This document shows, piece by piece, positions 11,474 through 21,021 of a DNA stretch of 30,117 nt. The stretch is from Patescibacteria group bacterium (lineage in GTDB: Bacteria > Patescibacteriota > Microgenomatia > Levybacterales > UBA12049). The notes beneath the pieces were generated by a model, which was given only the letters and a program-made list of their open reading frames with translations, made no database searches and was not told the DNA's origin. The stretch is taken from contig JBBTVW010000051.1 of the NCBI GenBank assembly GCA_038063075.1, positions 1 to 30,117 on the forward strand, given 5' to 3'. Both the position numbers and the translations under genes were made by a program. How positions within the stretch are numbered: position 1 is the first letter of the stretch; each line of letters begins with the position of its first letter.

Positions 11474-14173
11474 TTAATTTGGATAGTGACAATTCTTATA
11501 CTTCACGTGTGTTCCATCTGATTTAGTTCTTCCACACCAACATGGATCATTTCTGCCAAGCTTTTTCTTAACTATAGCTTTCTGATCATCTGAAACTTCT
11601 TTATTTACATTTGATCCAGCTGCATTTTGGGTAACACCAGGCTTAGTAAGTGGATTTTCAATAGGATGCTCATGATGAAGATGGATTTTATAAATTCTAT
11701 GAATCATTTCATCATCTATAGCATTTATTAATTTTTCAAACATTGCGTATGCTTCATTTTTATATTCAACTAATGGATCTTTCTGCCCATATCCTCTTAA
11801 GCCAATTCCTTGTCTTAAATTATCTATTGCATCTAAATGATCAACCCAAAGATTATCGACTACAGAAAGTGCTACATATCTTTCAAGTTGTCGCATAACC
11901 TCTTCTCCCATCTCTTTTTCTCTTTTTTGATAAAGATCATCAGCAATATTTGTTAAAAAGGAAGTTTTTTCTTCAAAGTTTTTTAACTGTTCAATTTGTG
12001 TAATTATTTGTTTAATTGAATTTTCATCAAAAGGTATTATGGTAGCAAATTGTTCTGCAATTTTTTCAGATGAGGATTTGCCTTCTTCGAAACTCTCAGA
12101 ATACATTACTACTAATGAGGTAATACTTGCATGAATTTTTTCAATAATATCTTCTCTTAATTTAGTTTCTTTATCATCGGCTTCTAAGACTGCCTTTCTT
12201 CTTTGATAAATTATTTCCCTTTGTTTATTTAAAACATCATCATAGTCAACTAAATGTTTTCTGATATCAAAATTATACCCCTCAACCTTAACCTGAGCTT
12301 GTTCTATTGCTCTTGAGACTAGTGGATGAGAAAGAGGTACATCTTCTGGCATATTAAATCTTGTCATTAGCCCCGATATTGTATCTCCACCAAAAAGCCT
12401 CATGATGTCATCATCAAGACCAACAAAGAATTGTGAAAGACCAGGATCACCTTGTCTTCCAGATCTTCCTCTTAACTGATTATCAATTCTTCTAGATTCA
12501 TGTCTTTCTGTTCCTATTACATATAATCCACCAAGATCCAAAACTTCCTTGTGTTTTCTTTCCCATTCTTTCCATTCTTTAGAATCCTTGTCATCAGTTC
12601 CATCAGCATTTCTTGGAGGCTCTCCACCTAAGATAATATCAACACCACGTCCTGCCATATTAGTTGCTACAGTTACTGCACCTTTTTCTCCTGCTTTTGC
12701 AATAATTTCTGCTTCTCTTTCATGATTTTTAGCATTTAATACTTCATGCTTTATTCCTTTTCTTTTTAGAAGCTCACTTACGATTTCATTCTTATCGATA
12801 GAGGTTGTTCCGACTAATACGGGCTGACCTCTTTTATGTGCTTTTTCAATCTCAACTGCAACTGCAGTATATTTTGCTCTAGAAGTTTTATATATAGCAT
12901 CTGCCATATCATTTCTTACCATGTCTCTATGAGTTGGAATAACAACAACATCTAATTTATAGATCTTATTAAACTCCTCAGCCTCTGTTACGGCAGTTCC
13001 TGTCATTCCTGCTAAAAGTTCGTACATTCTGAAATAATTTTGCAAAGAAACTGTTGCTAGTGTTTTTGACTCTCTTTGAATAACGACTGCTTCTTTTGCT
13101 TCGATAGCTTGATGGAGTCCTTCAGAAAGCCTTCTTCCAACCATAAGTCTTCCTGTGAATTCATCAACTAAGATTACTTCTCCGTCTTTTACTATATAAT
13201 CTTTTTCTTTATGAAAAAGAGTTCTTGCTTTTAAAGCTGCTTCTAGGTGATAAACGGTATCAAAATCTTTTTCATAGATATTTGCAATTCCATAAAGTTT
13301 TTCAATCTTTCCTATTCCATGATCTGTTAGGTGAGCTGTTCTTAGCTTTTCATCAATCTTATAATCAGTTTCTGAAGATAATTTATCTACAAGCTTTGCA
13401 TATTCATAATATTTTTTAGTAGGTTCTTCATCAGGAGCTGAAATAATATGTGGCGTTCTTGCTTCATCGATTAAAACAGAATCAACTTCATCAACAACTG
13501 CAAAATAAAAACCTCTTTGAGCTAATGAGTTCTTATCTTGGGCCATGTTATCCCTAAGATAATCAAAACCAAATTCTGAATTAATTCCATAAACAACATC
13601 GGCCAAATAAGCTTCTTTTCTTTCAATTGATTTTAAATGTAAAAGCCTATTATCCGTTGCCTCTTTGTTTACAAACTTGGGGTCAAAAAGAAAAGATTGT
13701 TCACTAATAATTGAAGATACGCTAAGTCCTAGGTAATTAAATATTGGTCCCATCCAACCTGCATCTCTTCTTGCCAAATAATCGTTTACAGTAACTAAAT
13801 GTACTCCTTTTCCAGTTAATGAGTGAAGATATAAGGCTGGAGTTGCAGATAATGTTTTTCCCTCTCCTGTTTTTTGCTCAGCTATTTTTCCATTAGCAAG
13901 TGAGGCTGCTGCCATAAGTTGAACATCAAAATGCCTAAGCCCTAATGTTCTAAAAGCTGCTTCTCTTGTTAGGGCAAAAGCTTCTGCCATTAAGCTTTCA
14001 AGTGGCTCACCATCTTCAACTCTTTCTTTTAATTCTTTTGTTTTTTTGGGGAAATCTGTAGCTTTTAATTTCTTAATCTTTGGTTCTAAACTATTGATCT
14101 CTTCAATTAGAGAGTTTAGCTTACTTATTTCTTTTTCATTGGAATCAAATAACTTTCCGAAGATATTTAGCAT
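11474..14173 (-). CDS. secA: Preprotein translocase subunit SecA
   Basis: QKTGEGKT, VDEVDSVLIDEARTP and RRIDNQLRGRSGRQGDPG motifs, plus a C-terminal SEC-C motif (GRNDPCWCG...KYKNCH); 899 aa. Confidence 0.99.
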   Translation of the reverse strand: MLNIFGKLFDSNEKEISKLNSLIEEINSLEPKIKKLKATDFPKKTKELKERVEDGEPLESLMAEAFALTREAAFRTLGLRHFDVQLMAAASLANGKIAEQKTGEGKTLSATPALYLHSLTGKGVHLVTVNDYLARRDAGWMGPIFNYLGLSVSSIISEQSFLFDPKFVNKEATDNRLLHLKSIERKEAYLADVVYGINSEFGFDYLRDNMAQDKNSLAQRGFYFAVVDEVDSVLIDEARTPHIISAPDEEPTKKYYEYAKLVDKLSSETDYKIDEKLRTAHLTDHGIGKIEKLYGIANIYEKDFDTVYHLEAALKARTLFHKEKDYIVKDGEVILVDEFTGRLMVGRRLSEGLHQAIEAKEAVVIQRESKTLATVSLQNYFRMYELLAGMTGTAVTEAEEFNKIYKLDVVVIPTHRDMVRNDMADAIYKTSRAKYTAVAVEIEKAHKRGQPVLVGTTSIDKNEIVSELLKRKGIKHEVLNAKNHEREAEIIAKAGEKGAVTVATNMAGRGVDIILGGEPPRNADGTDDKDSKEWKEWERKHKEVLDLGGLYVIGTERHESRRIDNQLRGRSGRQGDPGLSQFFVGLDDDIMRLFGGDTISGLMTRFNMPEDVPLSHPLVSRAIEQAQVKVEGYNFDIRKHLVDYDDVLNKQREIIYQRRKAVLEADDKETKLREDIIEKIHASITSLVVMYSESFEEGKSSSEKIAEQFATIIPFDENSIKQIITQIEQLKNFEEKTSFLTNIADDLYQKREKEMGEEVMRQLERYVALSVVDNLWVDHLDAIDNLRQGIGLRGYGQKDPLVEYKNEAYAMFEKLINAIDDEMIHRIYKIHLHHEHPIENPLTKPGVTQNAAGSNVNKEVSDDQKAIVKKKLGRNDPCWCGRTKSDGTHVKYKNCHYPN

Positions 14174-14200: not shown

Positions 14201-14232
14201 AAAAAAAATCCCTCACCGTTACAGCGAGGGAT
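14201..14232 (-). terminator. Intrinsic terminator
   Basis: ATCCCTCGCTG-TAA-CGGTGAGGGAT forms an 11-bp stem with two G-U pairs, followed by a T run. Confidence 0.85.
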
Positions 14233-14282
14233 ATCAATTGATCAATTGATAATAATTGGTAATGTTCCAAATTACTTACCAA

Positions 14283-14312
14283 CTATTTCTTCTTCTTCTT
14301 TTTCTTTGCCAT
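14283..14312 (-). CDS. Putative micro-ORF encoding MAKKKKKKK (9 aa)
   Basis: ATG GCA AAG AAA AAG AAG AAG AAG AAA TAG. SD AGGGGGTGA lies 6 nt upstream, with a promoter upstream and a terminator downstream. Confidence 0.6.
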   Translation of the reverse strand: MAKKKKKKK

Positions 14313-14380
14313 TTTATTTCACCCCCTTTTTTGATTTATAAATTATTAAATTAATTAAAATCTAGCTTTAATTTAATTTA

Positions 14381-14409
14381 ATATTGGATCATTTTTAGAA
14401 GAATGTCAA
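14381..14409 (-). promoter_or_regulatory. Sigma70-type promoter upstream of the micro-ORF
   Basis: TTGACA (14409-14404), 17-nt spacer, CAATAT (14386-14381). Confidence 0.5.
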
Positions 14410-16327: not shown

Positions 16328-16534
16328 ATGAAAGAAACAACACCAAATTCAACAGAAACATGGATATTCCCAAATGAACCTATAAGAAAAGGCCCAAGGC
16401 CTGTTTTTCCAGAAACACCTATTAAAGTAGTTAATGAAACCTACTTAGCACAATCTAGGCTTAGGGCAAGACGAAGAAGACATCAAAGAGGATTTGAACT
16501 TACTGCAAGATATTCAACATCTAGGCAGCATTAA
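16328..16534 (+). CDS. Small basic hypothetical protein
   Basis: 68-aa ORF filling a gap, with TGC-TATTAT upstream and an Arg-rich stretch (RLRARRRRHQR). It overlaps the lysS end by 14 nt. Confidence 0.5.
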   Translation: MKETTPNSTETWIFPNEPIRKGPRPVFPETPIKVVNETYLAQSRLRARRRRHQRGFELTARYSTSRQH

Positions 16535-18029
16535 ATCTTTTTTTAATAAACTCTTTATCTAAAGAAAGAATAAGCCATGCAGCTTTTGGTCCATGATCTT
16601 TTCCAATCAAACTTAAGTAAATGGCAGCAAAAGTCTCTTTACCGCTTAACCCTAACTCTTTACCTATTTCATAAATTTTTGTTTGAAACTCTTCAGGATC
16701 CCAAGTTTTATCAACTTCTTCTGCAATTTTTCCTAAAACTTCTTTTTGTTTTTCTGACAAATCTTGAGCCTCTTTTGGCAATTCATTTTGTACATGAAAT
16801 TTTTTATCCTCAGGCGCATATTTTTCCAACCAAACTTTAGCAAATGGTACCCATTCATTTAGTCCATTTTTCTTAATCTCCCCTGCCATATTTGGCATCT
16901 GTACCCATTGAGATAAAATTGAAAATTTAACTTTTGGTGGATGCTTTATTTCGTTAATTTGAGAATATTTAAAAATTTTTGCTTTTTCATTATCTTCTAA
17001 GCTTTTATTTTTTACTGCGTCGAAATATATTTGCGCGTACTCTTCATATTCATCGTATAATCTAGGGATTAAATCTGTCCCTAGTGGCGTAAATTCCACA
17101 GCCCTACTTGGCGGATTTTTAATCATTAAAAATCTAACTAATTCAGGTGCTAGTATTTCTAGCAACTGTTCTCCATTTAAGCCAACACCTTTTGAAGAGG
17201 CCATTTTCTTACCTCCTGAAAGAAAAAATTCATATGAGAATTTAAAAGGCGGTTTAACTTTGAATACATCAGTAATTATTCTCATAGCCACATCATAAGT
17301 GCCACCAGCGGATGCATGATCTTTACCAGCCCCTTCTATAGTTACACCGAAAATCCACCATTTAGAAGCCCATTCTACTTTAAAAGGCATTTTACTATTT
17401 CCCTTAAAAGGGGACATTTTACCAATCGTTCCACAACCTTTTGCCCAAATTACTAAATCTGATTTACAAACGAATTCTACTTCTTTTCCATCCCATCCAA
17501 TTACTTTGGTTGTTCCTAATTTTCCGCAATTAGGACATACTACTTGAAGAGGATACCAATCATCACCAAGAGTTTTTTTATATATCTCTTCATATACCCT
17601 TCTTACATCTTTTACATGATCTAGAACAAATTTTATTGCATTATCAAAAGTACCATCTTTATAGAGATCACTTGTTTTATAAATCTCTCCATTTATTCCT
17701 AATTCTTTCAGTATTTTCCTTAATTTATTACCGAAATAATCAGCAAATGAACCATTCCCATCGGGAGAAGGAACAAGATAAATCGGAATACCCATGTATT
17801 TTTCGTGGGTTTGTTTTAAATCAGTAGGTAAACCATCCAAAGGATCTGCATCATCAAATCCATAAGTAAATTTTACTCCTATTCCTCTTTCTTTAAGAAT
17901 TCGAAAAAGAACATCATGCATCACTGGACCTTTCATCGAACCCATGTGAACCATTCCGGACGGAGTCCAGGCGTCATTTATCCATTCATTAACTTTTCTA
18001 TCTTCAAGTAATCGATCTGCCCAAAACAT
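16521..18029 (-). CDS. lysS: Class I lysine--tRNA ligase
   Basis: TPSGMVHMG (HIGH-like), GGKKMASSKG (KMSKS-like), CxxC pairs, and the C-terminal G..HGP anticodon-domain motif. Confidence 0.95.
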   Translation of the reverse strand: MFWADRLLEDRKVNEWINDAWTPSGMVHMGSMKGPVMHDVLFRILKERGIGVKFTYGFDDADPLDGLPTDLKQTHEKYMGIPIYLVPSPDGNGSFADYFGNKLRKILKELGINGEIYKTSDLYKDGTFDNAIKFVLDHVKDVRRVYEEIYKKTLGDDWYPLQVVCPNCGKLGTTKVIGWDGKEVEFVCKSDLVIWAKGCGTIGKMSPFKGNSKMPFKVEWASKWWIFGVTIEGAGKDHASAGGTYDVAMRIITDVFKVKPPFKFSYEFFLSGGKKMASSKGVGLNGEQLLEILAPELVRFLMIKNPPSRAVEFTPLGTDLIPRLYDEYEEYAQIYFDAVKNKSLEDNEKAKIFKYSQINEIKHPPKVKFSILSQWVQMPNMAGEIKKNGLNEWVPFAKVWLEKYAPEDKKFHVQNELPKEAQDLSEKQKEVLGKIAEEVDKTWDPEEFQTKIYEIGKELGLSGKETFAAIYLSLIGKDHGPKAAWLILSLDKEFIKKRFNAA

Positions 18030-18072
18030 AATGTTATTTTACCTTAAAAGAAAATAAATATAAACGGCAAGA

Positions 18073-18327
18073 TTAAGTCCTTAAATGTCCCTGACCTAAT
18101 CTAACAGTACTTGTACTAGGAATAACTTGTCTAGTTGAAATAGGCATACTATTATCCAATTGTAATCCTCTACTAAATCTAAATCTTTGTTTTACCTCTC
18201 TTCTTTCAAAACCCATAGCAAAATCCCTTTTTCCTTCTAATAAAACATTTCTTTCTGCTCTTGGTATAAGAAGATTAAATTCAATACTATTTTTAGCACA
18301 CCGTATTCTAATAATTTCTTTTATCAT
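18073..18327 (-). CDS. Orphan hypothetical protein (84 aa)
   Basis: Start moved to ATG 18327 (MIKEII...), which has SD GAGGAGG 9 nt upstream. Confidence 0.6.
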   Translation of the reverse strand: MIKEIIRIRCAKNSIEFNLLIPRAERNVLLEGKRDFAMGFERREVKQRFRFSRGLQLDNSMPISTRQVIPSTSTVRLGQGHLRT

Positions 18328-18352
18328 CTTTACTTTCCTCCTCTTATGTTTT

Positions 18353-18622
18353 TCATAAACCTTCCCCTTCCTCTCTTTTTCTATTAAAACTATTCCAACC
18401 ATTTAAAACACCATAAACCTCACCAACTTTAAAAACAGCAAAAATCGCTCCTTCTGGATCTCTTCCTAAACCCTGAACTTGACCTTCAGAATCCCGAATA
18501 ATCCACCCACCAGCCTCTCCTCTTGCCATTGTCATTCCACCAGGCAATCCAGTTTCAACAATTGGAGTATTAGTACCAACTGGTTCAATTTGTCCCCTAT
18601 GCCCCCTAACTATTTCAGTCAT
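18353..18622 (-). CDS. Orphan Gly-rich hypothetical protein (89 aa)
   Basis: SD AGGAGA 8 nt upstream of the ATG; first gene after the putative attenuator. Confidence 0.7.
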   Translation of the reverse strand: MTEIVRGHRGQIEPVGTNTPIVETGLPGGMTMARGEAGGWIIRDSEGQVQGLGRDPEGAIFAVFKVGEVYGVLNGWNSFNRKREEGEGL

Positions 18623-18650
18623 AATTTTATTCTCCTTACTTTAAACCACT

Positions 18651-18674
18651 AAAAAACCCCTCCTTTGAGGGGCT
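18651..18674 (-). terminator. Intrinsic terminator (segment 3:4 of the putative attenuator)
   Basis: AGCCCCTC-AAAG-GAGGGGTT followed by further T residues. Confidence 0.85.
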
Positions 18675-18697
18675 TGTCTTAAATGGATTTCTAAACT

Positions 18698-18766
18698 TTA
18701 TACCAAGACAAATCCCTCCGTAGAGAGGTTCTTCTTGGTCTTTTTAGAAAAATTTACTTTAAGCAT
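18698..18766 (-). CDS. Putative leader peptide MLKVNFSKKTKKNLSTEGFVLV (22 aa)
   Basis: ATG lies 7 nt after TATAAT (leaderless). The stop falls between segments 2 and 3 of the attenuator. Confidence 0.55.
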   Translation of the reverse strand: MLKVNFSKKTKKNLSTEGFVLV

Positions 18767-18802
18767 GTCTATCATTATAACAGATGAGGTAACTTTTTAA
18801 AA

Positions 18803-20002: not shown

Positions 20003-21021
20003 GGTATTAATACTACTTTACCACACTGTCCTGATTTCATTACTGCCATTGCCTCTTCAAACTCTGAAAGCTTAAACTGATGAGTTACTAGTTTTGCTAA
20101 ATCTACTTTTTTGGATGCTAACAAATCTGAAGTCTGATACCATGTTTCCCAAATTCTTCTACCAAAAACGCTTATTGCAGATAGTTCTTTATTAATAAAG
20201 TATTTTCCTATTTCGATACTTGCCTCTTTTTTTGGAACGCCAAAAAAAACTATTTTTCCAGCAATTCTTGCTGCTTCCAAAATAGTATTCATAATTTCAG
20301 CATTTCCGCTTGTTTCTATAACAACTTCAAATTGATTTTTGTATTTTTCTGGCAAATAATCATAAACCTCATCTGCACCCATTTTCATAGCAAGATTTCT
20401 TCTGTATTCACCTCTATTTATACCAATAACTTTTTTTGCACCATATGCTTTAGCAACAGAAACTACACATTGACCTACAGGACCTAGTCCAAAAACAATT
20501 ACAGACTTGCCTGCAACATCTGCTTTTGAAACAACATGAACTGCATTTCCTAATGGTTCTTGAGCACTGATAACATTTGCAGGTATATCAATTGTATTTT
20601 TCCAACTCGTTCTAATAGGGATTACAGCATACTGGGCAAATCCACCATAATCTCCACCTATTCCAAAAAGCTGCATATTTTCGCAAACATGACGATTATT
20701 TATTCTACATTGATAGCAGTTGTTACAAAAAATGTGAGTTTCAGAAGAAACCATATCTCCAACCTTAATGTCAGTTAACTCGTCACTATTTACTTCTAAA
20801 ACCTCTCCAACAACTTCGTGGCCAAGAGTAACTGGAAACTTTTGGATATGACCTTCTGCCCATGGAGTCCAATCATAAAGCGATATATCTGTTCCACAAA
20901 TAGATGAGGCTTTTACTTTAATTAATAATTCTCCTTTTTTAGGTTTGGGGATAGGAATATTTCGAAGGGCAACACCAGGGGCGTTTTTCTCTTTAACTAC
21001 GGCCAACATTGTTTTTGCCAT
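19999..21021 (-). CDS. tdh: L-threonine 3-dehydrogenase (Zn-dependent MDR family)
   Basis: SICGTD, GHE, structural zinc CxxCxxC-x7-C, GLGPVG and LSAISVFGR. Likely start ATG 21021 (MAKTM...). Confidence 0.85.
   Translation of the reverse strand: MAKTMLAVVKEKNAPGVALRNIPIPKPKKGELLIKVKASSICGTDISLYDWTPWAEGHIQKFPVTLGHEVVGEVLEVNSDELTDIKVGDMVSSETHIFCNNCYQCRINNRHVCENMQLFGIGGDYGGFAQYAVIPIRTSWKNTIDIPANVISAQEPLGNAVHVVSKADVAGKSVIVFGLGPVGQCVVSVAKAYGAKKVIGINRGEYRRNLAMKMGADEVYDYLPEKYKNQFEVVIETSGNAEIMNTILEAARIAGKIVFFGVPKKEASIEIGKYFINKELSAISVFGRRIWETWYQTSDLLASKKVDLAKLVTHQFKLSEFEEAMAVMKSGQCGKVVLIP

Follow-up and report, generated by a model that had tools for sequence, protein, structure and literature searches.

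Between kbl and two orphan ORFs that lead to a class I lysyl-tRNA synthetase gene (lysS), the minus strand of the DNA analysed here (the window, 30,117 nucleotides) carries a short lysine-rich ORF that is followed by segments with alternative pairing partners and by an intrinsic terminator. The locus raises the question of whether this arrangement is a device by which a translating ribosome reports the supply of charged tRNA-Lys to the genes behind it, or whether the ORF and the hairpins have some other origin, such as the terminator of kbl. The source is an uncultured groundwater Levybacteria (CPR) bacterium with a 710 kb genome (32% GC, 95.7% complete), and the organism is known only from groundwater metagenomes. 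The sequencing runs listed as holding the locus are all groundwater DNA runs, with no RNA run among them.

Layout of the leader region in the window

The minus-strand gene order is greA, tdh, kbl, the putative attenuator element, ORF89, ORF109, class I lysS, a Ham1-family gene, and serS. The features of the region are listed below in the direction of transcription, with their basis in brackets.

18805-18803, minus strand: stop codon TAG of kbl (sequence reading)
18796-18801, minus strand: -35 hexamer TTTAAA of the leader promoter (promoter scan)
18774-18782, minus strand: TG-extended -10 element, TGtTATAAT (sequence reading and promoter scan)
18698-18766, minus strand: leader ORF read as leaderless, MLKVNFSKKTKKNLSTEGFVLV, 22 codons plus TAA with five Lys codons (ATG at 18766)
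18740-18745, minus strand: putative accessory Lys codons AAA AAG (K8 K9), outside all predicted helices
18731-18736, minus strand: putative sensor codons AAG AAG (K11 K12) (codon conservation among leaders)
18723-18739, minus strand: segment 1, 5' arm of the predicted anti-antiterminator (pairing with segment 2)
18722-18719, minus strand: UACG loop between segments 1 and 2
18702-18718, minus strand: segment 2, partner of segment 1 or segment 3 (folding and pair counts)
18667-18680, minus strand: segment 3, 3' arm of the predicted antiterminator, containing the terminator 5' arm CCCCTC (folding and covariation)
18651-18672, minus strand: intrinsic terminator CCCCTC-AAAG-GAGGGG plus T6 (stem 18672-18657, T6 18656-18651)
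18646-18650, minus strand: conserved AGTGG immediately past the U tract (conservation in homologues and in non-Lys paralogues)
18353-18622, minus strand: ORF89, an orphan and the putative first regulated gene (SD AAGGAGA at 18631-18637, ATG at 18622)
18073-18402, minus strand: ORF109, an orphan overlapping ORF89 by 50 nt in a different frame
18036-18064, minus strand: own promoter of lysS, TTTATA-17-TAAAAT, ending 6 nt before the lysS ATG
16521-18029, minus strand: lysS, class I lysyl-tRNA synthetase gene (Pfam PF01921, 1.3e-86), co-directional with the leader

Every feature that a first-pass annotation, made from the letters of the window, had described in this region lies where that annotation had placed it. 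The leader promoter consists of TTTAAA, 16 nt, and a TG-extended TATAAT, and the ATG of the leader ORF follows 7 nt past the -10 without a Shine-Dalgarno (SD) sequence, with the stop codon at 18700-18698. The 2:3 pairing spans 14 positions and contains one A-C mismatch and one G-U pair, as had been counted, and the 1:2 pairing spans 17 positions, among them two mismatches and two G-U pairs. The RNAfold check proposed at the time bears out all three helices, at -18.0 (1:2), -16.4 (2:3), and -12.3 (3:4) kcal/mol, and the 136-nt region as a whole folds at -42.7 kcal/mol (z = -4.45), with none of 200 shuffled sequences as stable. The structure is well beyond chance because the same anatomy is conserved in dozens of genomes. 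At the DNA level the element is single-copy in its own genome and no repeat of it was found there, and for this reason the idea of a repeat or a mobile element was dropped.

Conservation of the element and of its putative sensor codons

A preliminary DNA search of relatives recovered the leader region in several genomes, one of which carries it twice. Ten homologues were used to build a covariance model, which matches 89 of the 151 genomes of the order (about 60%) at E ≤ 0.01, approximately 60 of them above 45 bits. An amino-acid-type attenuator had been called unexpected in a CPR-like organism; within this order the element is instead the rule. Eleven genomes outside the order match in a class-wide sample of 151 genomes, 7 of which belong to the order, and the nine of these 11 with a leader ORF all keep the KK. 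The full element occurs in named public records of Candidatus Levybacteria/Levyibacteriota, and weaker copies occur in other Microgenomates (Woesebacteria, Gottesmanbacteria, and Beckwithbacteria). A pattern scan of all species genomes mixed true matches with chance terminators of unrelated phyla, and the 35 matches confirmed by the model were used.

Within the 1.5-3 kb examined downstream, a lysine gene is present in 55 of the 65 Lys-type copies. The downstream genes among these 65 copies are class I lysS (42 copies), aspartokinase (10), a lysA-type decarboxylase (6), an M20 peptidase (5), a dapL-like aminotransferase (3), an ATP-grasp gene (3), a deacetylase (2), and DAP epimerase (1). The upstream gene varies, being kbl in 6 copies, greA in 12, and another gene in 47. 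By gene order, the element travels with lysine genes and not with kbl.

The reading frame of the leader was assessed by anchoring on the conserved AAGAAG and asking for an ATG-started ORF that covers the anchor. Such an ORF is present in the Lys-Lys frame in 67 of 73 copies, compared to 7 and 1 in the other two frames, and the consensus of the leaders is [FVI]-S-K-K-[ST]-K-K-N-L-S. The first sensor Lys is invariant among the Lys-type copies (65 of 65). The second position holds Lys in 59 of 65, and its distance from the ATG is 10-13 codons in 62 of 67 copies. For the 67 leaders whose ATG-started ORF does not exceed 31 codons, a tally gives AAG in 63 and AAA in 2 at the first sensor position, and AAG in 45 and AAA in 15 at the second. 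The codon that dominates the sensor positions, AAG, is the minor Lys codon of the genome (1.73% of codons versus 6.57% for AAA), which encodes one tRNA-Lys(CUU) and one tRNA-Lys(UUU). Lysine makes up 18% of leader residues and is found at position -4 in 32 of 65 and at position -3 in 28 of 65 leaders, both positions being outside every predicted helix. The first-pass annotation had proposed the whole KKTKK cluster as a possible sensor of Lys-tRNA; the K11-K12 pair is conserved, whereas roughly half of the copies lack the first pair.

Judged from these comparisons of sequence, selection acts on the short ORF as a reading frame. Pairing with segment 2 places a second constraint on the AAGAAG tract, so that A/G changes within it cannot separate coding from structural selection. 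Conservation extends to just two sensor codons, fewer than is usual in classical leaders for abundant amino acids, and lysine is a common one.

The promoter of the leader is conserved together with the ORF. Of 67 homologues, 63 have a good -10, 35 have a TG-extended one, and 48 match the -35 at four or more of six positions; the -35 is mostly TTGACA, at a spacing of 16-18 nt. The distance from the end of the -10 to the ATG has a median of 10 nt, and an SD-like sequence is found in just 2 of 67 copies. The leaderless reading offered in the first-pass annotation is well founded because the -10 sits about 10 nt before the ATG and SD sequences are almost absent.

Leaders with other sensor codons surfaced as weak matches of the same covariance model. 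Read one base later, the purine tract becomes AGA AGA (Arg), and the five copies of this kind precede a GNAT-M20-argS operon (one copy), GNAT or GNAT-M20 genes (two), and genes of unknown role (two). Trp codons occur as WW (…AAWWNLS…) in a leader ahead of trpE-trpG-trpD and as W in leaders ahead of trpS; a YYY leader stands before tyrS, a TTTKT leader before thrS, and KK..KK leaders before lysX/lysY. In the leader ahead of argS the codons read RRR. This repeated agreement between codon and target gene is hard to account for except by a ribosome sensing the cognate charged tRNA. Codon and target disagree in some cases: an NWY leader in the genome of the window precedes a 47-codon hydrophobic ORF and then alaS, and an Ile-rich leader precedes prephenate dehydratase.

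A general synthetase regulon was considered and rejected, as the 3.5-kb upstream regions of 20 trpS and 20 tyrS genes of the order contain one W-type attenuator and no Tyr-codon (Y-type) leader. Because of this scarcity, the non-Lys versions are regarded as sporadic and the regulon claim is lowered. What is left is a tentative proposal, which we think has a real chance of being correct but would not bet on: that Microgenomates may possess a modular family of leaderless, codon-swappable attenuators whose main member is the Lys element, that its scaffold may comprise a promoter, about 11 codons, two sensor codons, N-L-S, the hairpin, the terminator, and UGG, and that substitution of the two codons, or a shift of their frame, may have directed this scaffold to Lys, Arg, Trp, Tyr, or Thr.

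Alternative helices and the proposed mechanism

Pairing in the three helices was counted on 57 strong copies. The 3:4 terminator, a 6-7 bp GC stem followed by U6, is paired in 97.7% of cells with compensatory changes present. The 1:2 helix is paired in 80% of cells, and its covariation is modest (0.226 versus 0.205 when shuffled, reached by 5 of 500 shuffles). The 2:3 helix, in an alignment that was partly fitted to this helix itself, is paired in 77% of cells and shows 69 double-change cells versus 38±6 when shuffled (reached by 0 of 500), well above slid controls. Inspected by eye, many of the distal 2:3 pairs vary in sequence among copies without losing complementarity. Because of the partial fitting of the alignment, each of the 67 copies was also folded without any alignment; this was used instead of a structure-blind MAFFT alignment of the 57 cores, in which the stretch between segments 2 and 3 is aligned too poorly to count pairs.

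The alignment-free folds assume a literature-derived ribosome footprint of +12 nt, with the A site on the second Lys codon and the RNA free from +13, and the fold of the stalled state covers the remaining RNA up to the terminator 5' arm. With the ribosome on the Lys codon, the 2:3 helix folds at a median of -16.1 kcal/mol versus -6.2 kcal/mol for shuffled sequences (z about -4, with 97% of copies below -2), and under the assumed footprint the terminator arm is sequestered in 82% of the 67 copies. When the ribosome is placed on the stop codon instead, the median weakens to -0.3 kcal/mol, and sequestration of the arm falls to 0% of copies. The median for 1:2 is also -16.1 kcal/mol, and the 3:4 helix, at a median of -10.2 kcal/mol, is weaker than the antiterminator. 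By sequence and comparison, the 2:3 antiterminator is mutually exclusive with both the terminator and the 1:2 helix. The stop codon has two placements among the copies: in the short class (37 copies) it lies 9-15 nt past the second Lys codon, inside the 1:2 loop, and in the long class (25 copies, including the window) it lies 30-36 nt past this codon, just beyond segment 2. Both placements are modelled to mask segment 2.

The trp-type, four-segment interpretation of the first-pass annotation is supported by these data, as all three helices are conserved and both 2:3 and 3:4 show compensatory changes. The search of relatives for covarying stems and conserved Lys codon positions, which it had recommended, found both, and the homologues keep the whole four-segment anatomy instead of the bare 3:4 hairpin that it had named as a possible refutation. 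The cUACGg tetraloop that it had described is present in the window at 18722-18719 but is not conserved in homologues. Past the U tract, the T and G of a UGG motif are invariant and the next G is kept in 45 of 57 sequences; the AGTGG/UGG motif also occurs in the non-Lys paralogues. A pairing of UGG with the CCA ahead of the Lys codons was tried and rejected, being compatible in approximately 70% of sequences, with both sides near-invariant and no covariation.

We assign a probability of roughly 85% to the reading that the element is a ribosome-mediated leader-peptide transcription attenuator sensing charged tRNA-Lys. In the proposed mechanism, transcription would start at or within one base of the leader ATG, so that a 70S ribosome would load on the 5'-terminal AUG, and the 1:2 hairpin may have a role in pausing. 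When Lys-tRNA is plentiful, the ribosome would reach the stop codon, past segment 2 in the long form or within the 1:2 loop in the short form, and would cover segment 2; segment 3 would then pair with segment 4, and RNA polymerase would terminate at the U tract. When Lys-tRNA is scarce, the ribosome would stall with AAG AAG (K11 and K12, with K8 and K9 helping) in the A site and would cover segment 1. Segment 2, now free, would pair with segment 3 and block the terminator, allowing read-through into ORF89, ORF109, and class I lysS. Without any translation, the 1:2 helix would form and the terminator would follow (superattenuation).

A translation-dependent attenuator of this kind need not be specific for lysine. 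It could report general ribosome availability or speed, or stress, with the Lys codons as a by-product of a purine-rich segment 1, whose partner, segment 2, is U-rich and so demands purines for pairing; AAGAAG encodes K, R, or E depending on the frame, the genome of the window has a paralogue with an RK/NWY leader upstream of alaS, and general stalling would act on any attenuator of this type. An irrelevant frame, however, should leave the three frames in about equal use, whereas the observed counts are 67, 7, and 1, and lysine is enriched at unpaired positions. Moreover, lysine genes are the targets of 55 of 65 copies, and when the frame shifts to Arg, the target in one of five copies is GNAT-M20-argS, in two is GNAT or GNAT-M20, and in two is a gene of unknown role. 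We consider a non-specific attenuator unlikely on these grounds.

A second alternative is that the RNA itself is a switch, either an analogue of the lysine riboswitch or an operator bound by LysRS, and that the ORF is incidental. Such a switch would be served by conserved RNA with alternative helices, and it could give a role to the conserved UGG past the U tract. Autoregulation through leader binding is known for other synthetases, as in E. coli thrS. Against an incidental ORF, the start codon, the frame, the distance to the promoter, and the position of the stop codon are all conserved, and codon identity changes with the target gene on a constant scaffold. Beyond the Lys tract and UGG, only the U tract and the helices are conserved, and neither a multi-stem junction nor a conserved loop is present. 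There is also no Rfam match to the Lysine or T-box families: neither the region nor the whole genome matches the five-helix aptamer of the lysine riboswitch (RF00168), and the T-box (RF00230) is absent from both the element region and the whole genome, the element at about 115 nt being too short for one. These observations make a ligand- or protein-binding switch very improbable. With respect to other riboswitches, a SAM-I/IV riboswitch precedes metK in this genome, and the SAM-I family was not found in the whole genome.

We give an equally small chance to a free-standing small gene, whose product would be either the terminated transcript of about 115 nt, acting in trans as an sRNA, or the 22-aa peptide. 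The element does have its own promoter and terminator, and a trp attenuator RNA and its peptide are reported to act in trans in Sinorhizobium (PMC7298713, PMC7968998). The long-form peptides end alike in RGFVL, but this shared tail is encoded by segment 2 and is absent in the short-form leaders (37 of 65). The position directly upstream of lysine genes is conserved, and a function in trans would be compatible with attenuation as an added role. Lastly, an ordinary kbl terminator whose 3' UTR contains a hairpin and an ORF by chance, as the location 125 nt downstream of the kbl stop on the same strand might suggest, is refuted by the comparative data, since the upstream gene is variable and the homologues follow kbl in only 6 of 65 copies (greA in 12), carry their own promoter, precede lysine genes in 55 of 65, and conserve the full four-segment anatomy and not just 3:4.

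Proposed regulation of lysS, comparison with known systems, and significance

The genes behind the proposed leader-peptide attenuator are ordered as the first-pass annotation had them, two orphan ORFs and then lysS, to which a separate promoter of lysS must now be added. The -10 box of this promoter lies 6 nt ahead of the lysS ATG, without an SD sequence, and the same arrangement is found in 39 of 42 lysS orthologues. No terminator was predicted between the attenuator and lysS in a terminator scan. Because lysS has its own leaderless promoter, the attenuator would be an added inducible layer. Most likely, lysS is transcribed constitutively as a leaderless mRNA, and transcripts from the promoter of the leader extend into ORF89, ORF109, and lysS only under a shortage of Lys-tRNA. 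Since lysS has its own promoter and no SD, it may be poorly translated from read-through RNA, and the directly controlled genes may be just the two orphan ORFs.

ORF89 has no Pfam match and only five close homologues in a homologue search, and for ORF109 neither a family nor a homologue was found in Pfam, homologue, and Atlas searches, with poor model confidence. Comparable small, unrelated ORFs occupy the position of ORF89 and ORF109 in other genomes. The main role of these fast-evolving orphan ORFs might be to deliver ribosomes to the SD-less start of the synthetase on read-through transcripts. By tblastn, the genome contains lysS but no homologue of aspartokinase, lysA, dapL, M20, ATP-grasp, or deacetylase genes, and the organism appears to be unable to make lysine. 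On top of the constitutive leaderless promoter of lysS, the attenuator would provide an inducible boost in an apparent lysine auxotroph.

The mechanism would be that of textbook leader-peptide attenuation, for which pheST, the lysine leader of Thermus, and the leaderless Cys leaders of mycobacteria are precedents. The element resembles the enterobacterial trpL, hisL, pheL, thrL, leuL, and ilv leaders in having a short ORF with cognate codons in segment 1, exclusive 1:2, 2:3, and 3:4 helices, and an intrinsic terminator ahead of the first structural gene. Nothing in the region or in the whole window reaches an Rfam gathering threshold, and the best match is Phe_leader (RF01859), which fits the geometry over its full length at a sub-threshold score (18.5 bits here and 31.4 bits in a paralogue, with a gathering threshold of 55). 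Unlike the enterobacterial leaders, to which it is not homologous, the element is proposed to sense lysine, its ORF is leaderless, its two conserved sensor codons stand at a fixed position, its stop codon has two alternative placements, and it precedes the synthetase operon of an apparent lysine auxotroph and not a biosynthetic operon.

In E. coli, the synthetase operon pheST is controlled by the pheM leader peptide and a terminator/antiterminator choice. The arrangement here is similar in that an aminoacyl-tRNA synthetase operon lies behind a leader peptide with cognate codons and a terminator/antiterminator, but the amino acid, the lineage, and the sequence differ, pheM has an SD sequence, and lysS here has its own leaderless promoter. 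The lysine (alpha-aminoadipate) cluster of Thermus thermophilus is reportedly governed by a leader-peptide attenuator (Tsubouchi et al., J Biol Chem 2005). That leader likewise combines a Lys-codon leader peptide and transcription attenuation ahead of lysine genes, and the KK..KK leaders before lysX/lysY in relatives within the order precede genes of the same pathway as the Thermus cluster. Here the target is lysS, not a biosynthetic cluster, and the start is leaderless.

Mycobacterial leaderless polycysteine short ORFs are cysteine-responsive attenuators (bioRxiv 10.1101/834739). They resemble the present element in that a polycistronic transcript opens with a leaderless short ORF, whose translation senses one amino acid and tunes the genes downstream; they differ in sensing cysteine and in belonging to another phylum, and the element here has a canonical terminator and antiterminator. 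The lysine riboswitch and the T-box also raise the expression of lysine genes or LysRS at low lysine or low charged tRNA-Lys through a terminator/antiterminator. In contrast to both, the element has no aptamer and no tRNA-binding specifier or T-box sequence, and sensing is proposed to be performed by the translating ribosome.

A literature search found no paper on this element, on lysine leader attenuators in CPR, or on any CPR attenuator. The element belongs to no Rfam family and is therefore unannotated in hundreds of genomes. To our knowledge, almost nothing is known of gene regulation in CPR/Patescibacteria, which cannot be grown alone, and the element offers a readable regulatory device conserved across an order. 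It also defines a lysine regulon consisting of lysS, aspartokinase, dapL, lysA, lysX/Y, deacetylases, and peptidases. The rare versions of the scaffold with Arg, Trp, Tyr, and Thr codons provide a natural experiment on codon specificity, and if the tentative codon-swappable family is real, auxotrophic CPR bacteria that lack T-boxes would gain an inducible second layer over constitutive leaderless synthetase promoters. The attenuator reading would extend leader-peptide attenuation to lysine with a leaderless ORF and would imply efficient 70S initiation on 5'-terminal AUGs. If this reading is true, a genome without a recognisable lysine pathway still tracks its charged tRNA-Lys to tune the synthetase.

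Attenuators and a riboswitch elsewhere in the source genome

The scaffold of the predicted lysine attenuator recurs with other sensor codons in the source genome (G000), which also encodes a SAM riboswitch:

C35, 920-1056 (locus L095:301-437), plus strand: paralogous attenuator with the leader MEMGHTNTMNWYIRKLLARGVFLS*
C37, about 13940-14060 (locus L295:144-255), plus strand: third paralogue, with the leader MKSVQNNWYYRFPLKGGDFVVV*
C40, about 20346-20446 (locus L294:197-297), plus strand: SAM-I/IV riboswitch (RF01725), scoring 47.8 bits (gathering score 41.1)

A hydrophobic ORF of 47 codons lies immediately 3' of the MEMGHTNTMNWYIRKLLARGVFLS* attenuator, with a leaderless alaS after it; the sensor codons of this attenuator do not match alanine. 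The MKSVQNNWYYRFPLKGGDFVVV* paralogue precedes a gene of the Asp/Glu racemase family, which is also preceded by similar WYY/YWY leaders in two other genomes. The gene downstream of the riboswitch has an N terminus that, judged by eye, is MetK-like, and the riboswitch terminator is a GC-stem of the same style as those of the attenuators.

Immediately after the U tract, the motif (A/U)(G/A)UGG is nearly invariant, both in the window (18646-18650) and at the equivalent position in all homologues. It is common to the lysine and non-lysine attenuators and is present 3' of the SAM riboswitch terminator, and it is absent from the remaining 13 of the 17 strong terminators of the source genome. In some cases, the motif coincides with a start codon.

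The window itself contains a further lysine-rich reading frame between serS and secA:

14201-14409, minus strand: micro-gene MAKKKKKKK*

This micro-gene carries a terminator of its own in addition to a strong SD; no antiterminator overlapping that terminator was seen.

Codon-swapped versions in relatives

Versions of the scaffold with non-lysine or otherwise different codons were found in relatives at loci L247, L253, L249, L256, L239, L252, L079, L242, L246, L235, and L240. Tryptophan versions lie upstream of trpEGD (WW) and trpS (W), a tyrosine version (YYY) upstream of tyrS, a threonine version (TTTKT) upstream of thrS, and an arginine version (RR(R)) upstream of GNAT-M20(-argS), and a lysine variant (KK..KK) upstream of lysX/lysY. 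These codon-swapped versions before matching genes are sporadic, with one such attenuator at the 40 trpS/tyrS loci surveyed.

Many of the relatives bearing the element carry the database label 'uncultured Gammaproteobacteria bacterium', and one is labelled Methylomirabilota (the records behind L103, L107, L109, L110, L114, L117, L121, L124, L128, L129, L134, L138, L140, L146, and others). The taxon labels of at least three such records look wrong, and the genomes appear to belong to the Levybacteria order instead.

Small ORFs and the lysS promoter

In most relatives, the slot between the attenuator and lysS (18073-18622 in the window) is occupied by one or two small ORFs of 60-380 aa, which have good SDs, in many cases belong to no known family, and usually end 7-68 nt upstream of the SD-less lysS ATG. 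A loose (L/V)LPEG/LPGG motif is repeated near the N termini of some of them. In the window, the two orphan ORFs of this slot, ORF89 and ORF109, lie in different frames and share 50 nt (18353-18402). Both the true start of ORF109 and its reality as a gene are uncertain because the Atlas gene call places the start at residue 26.

Downstream of the attenuator, lysS is predicted to have its own promoter:

18036-18064, minus strand: lysS promoter, with the lysS start at 18029

Similar leaderless arrangements are apparent at secA (ATG near 14173 in the window) and at alaS on contig C35. Among 42 lysS loci of relatives, the -10 box ends 5-10 nt upstream of the lysS ATG in 39 of the 42 genomes, and just three have an SD-like sequence ahead of the gene. 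The putative leaderless promoter of lysS is conserved and is positioned 3' of the attenuator.
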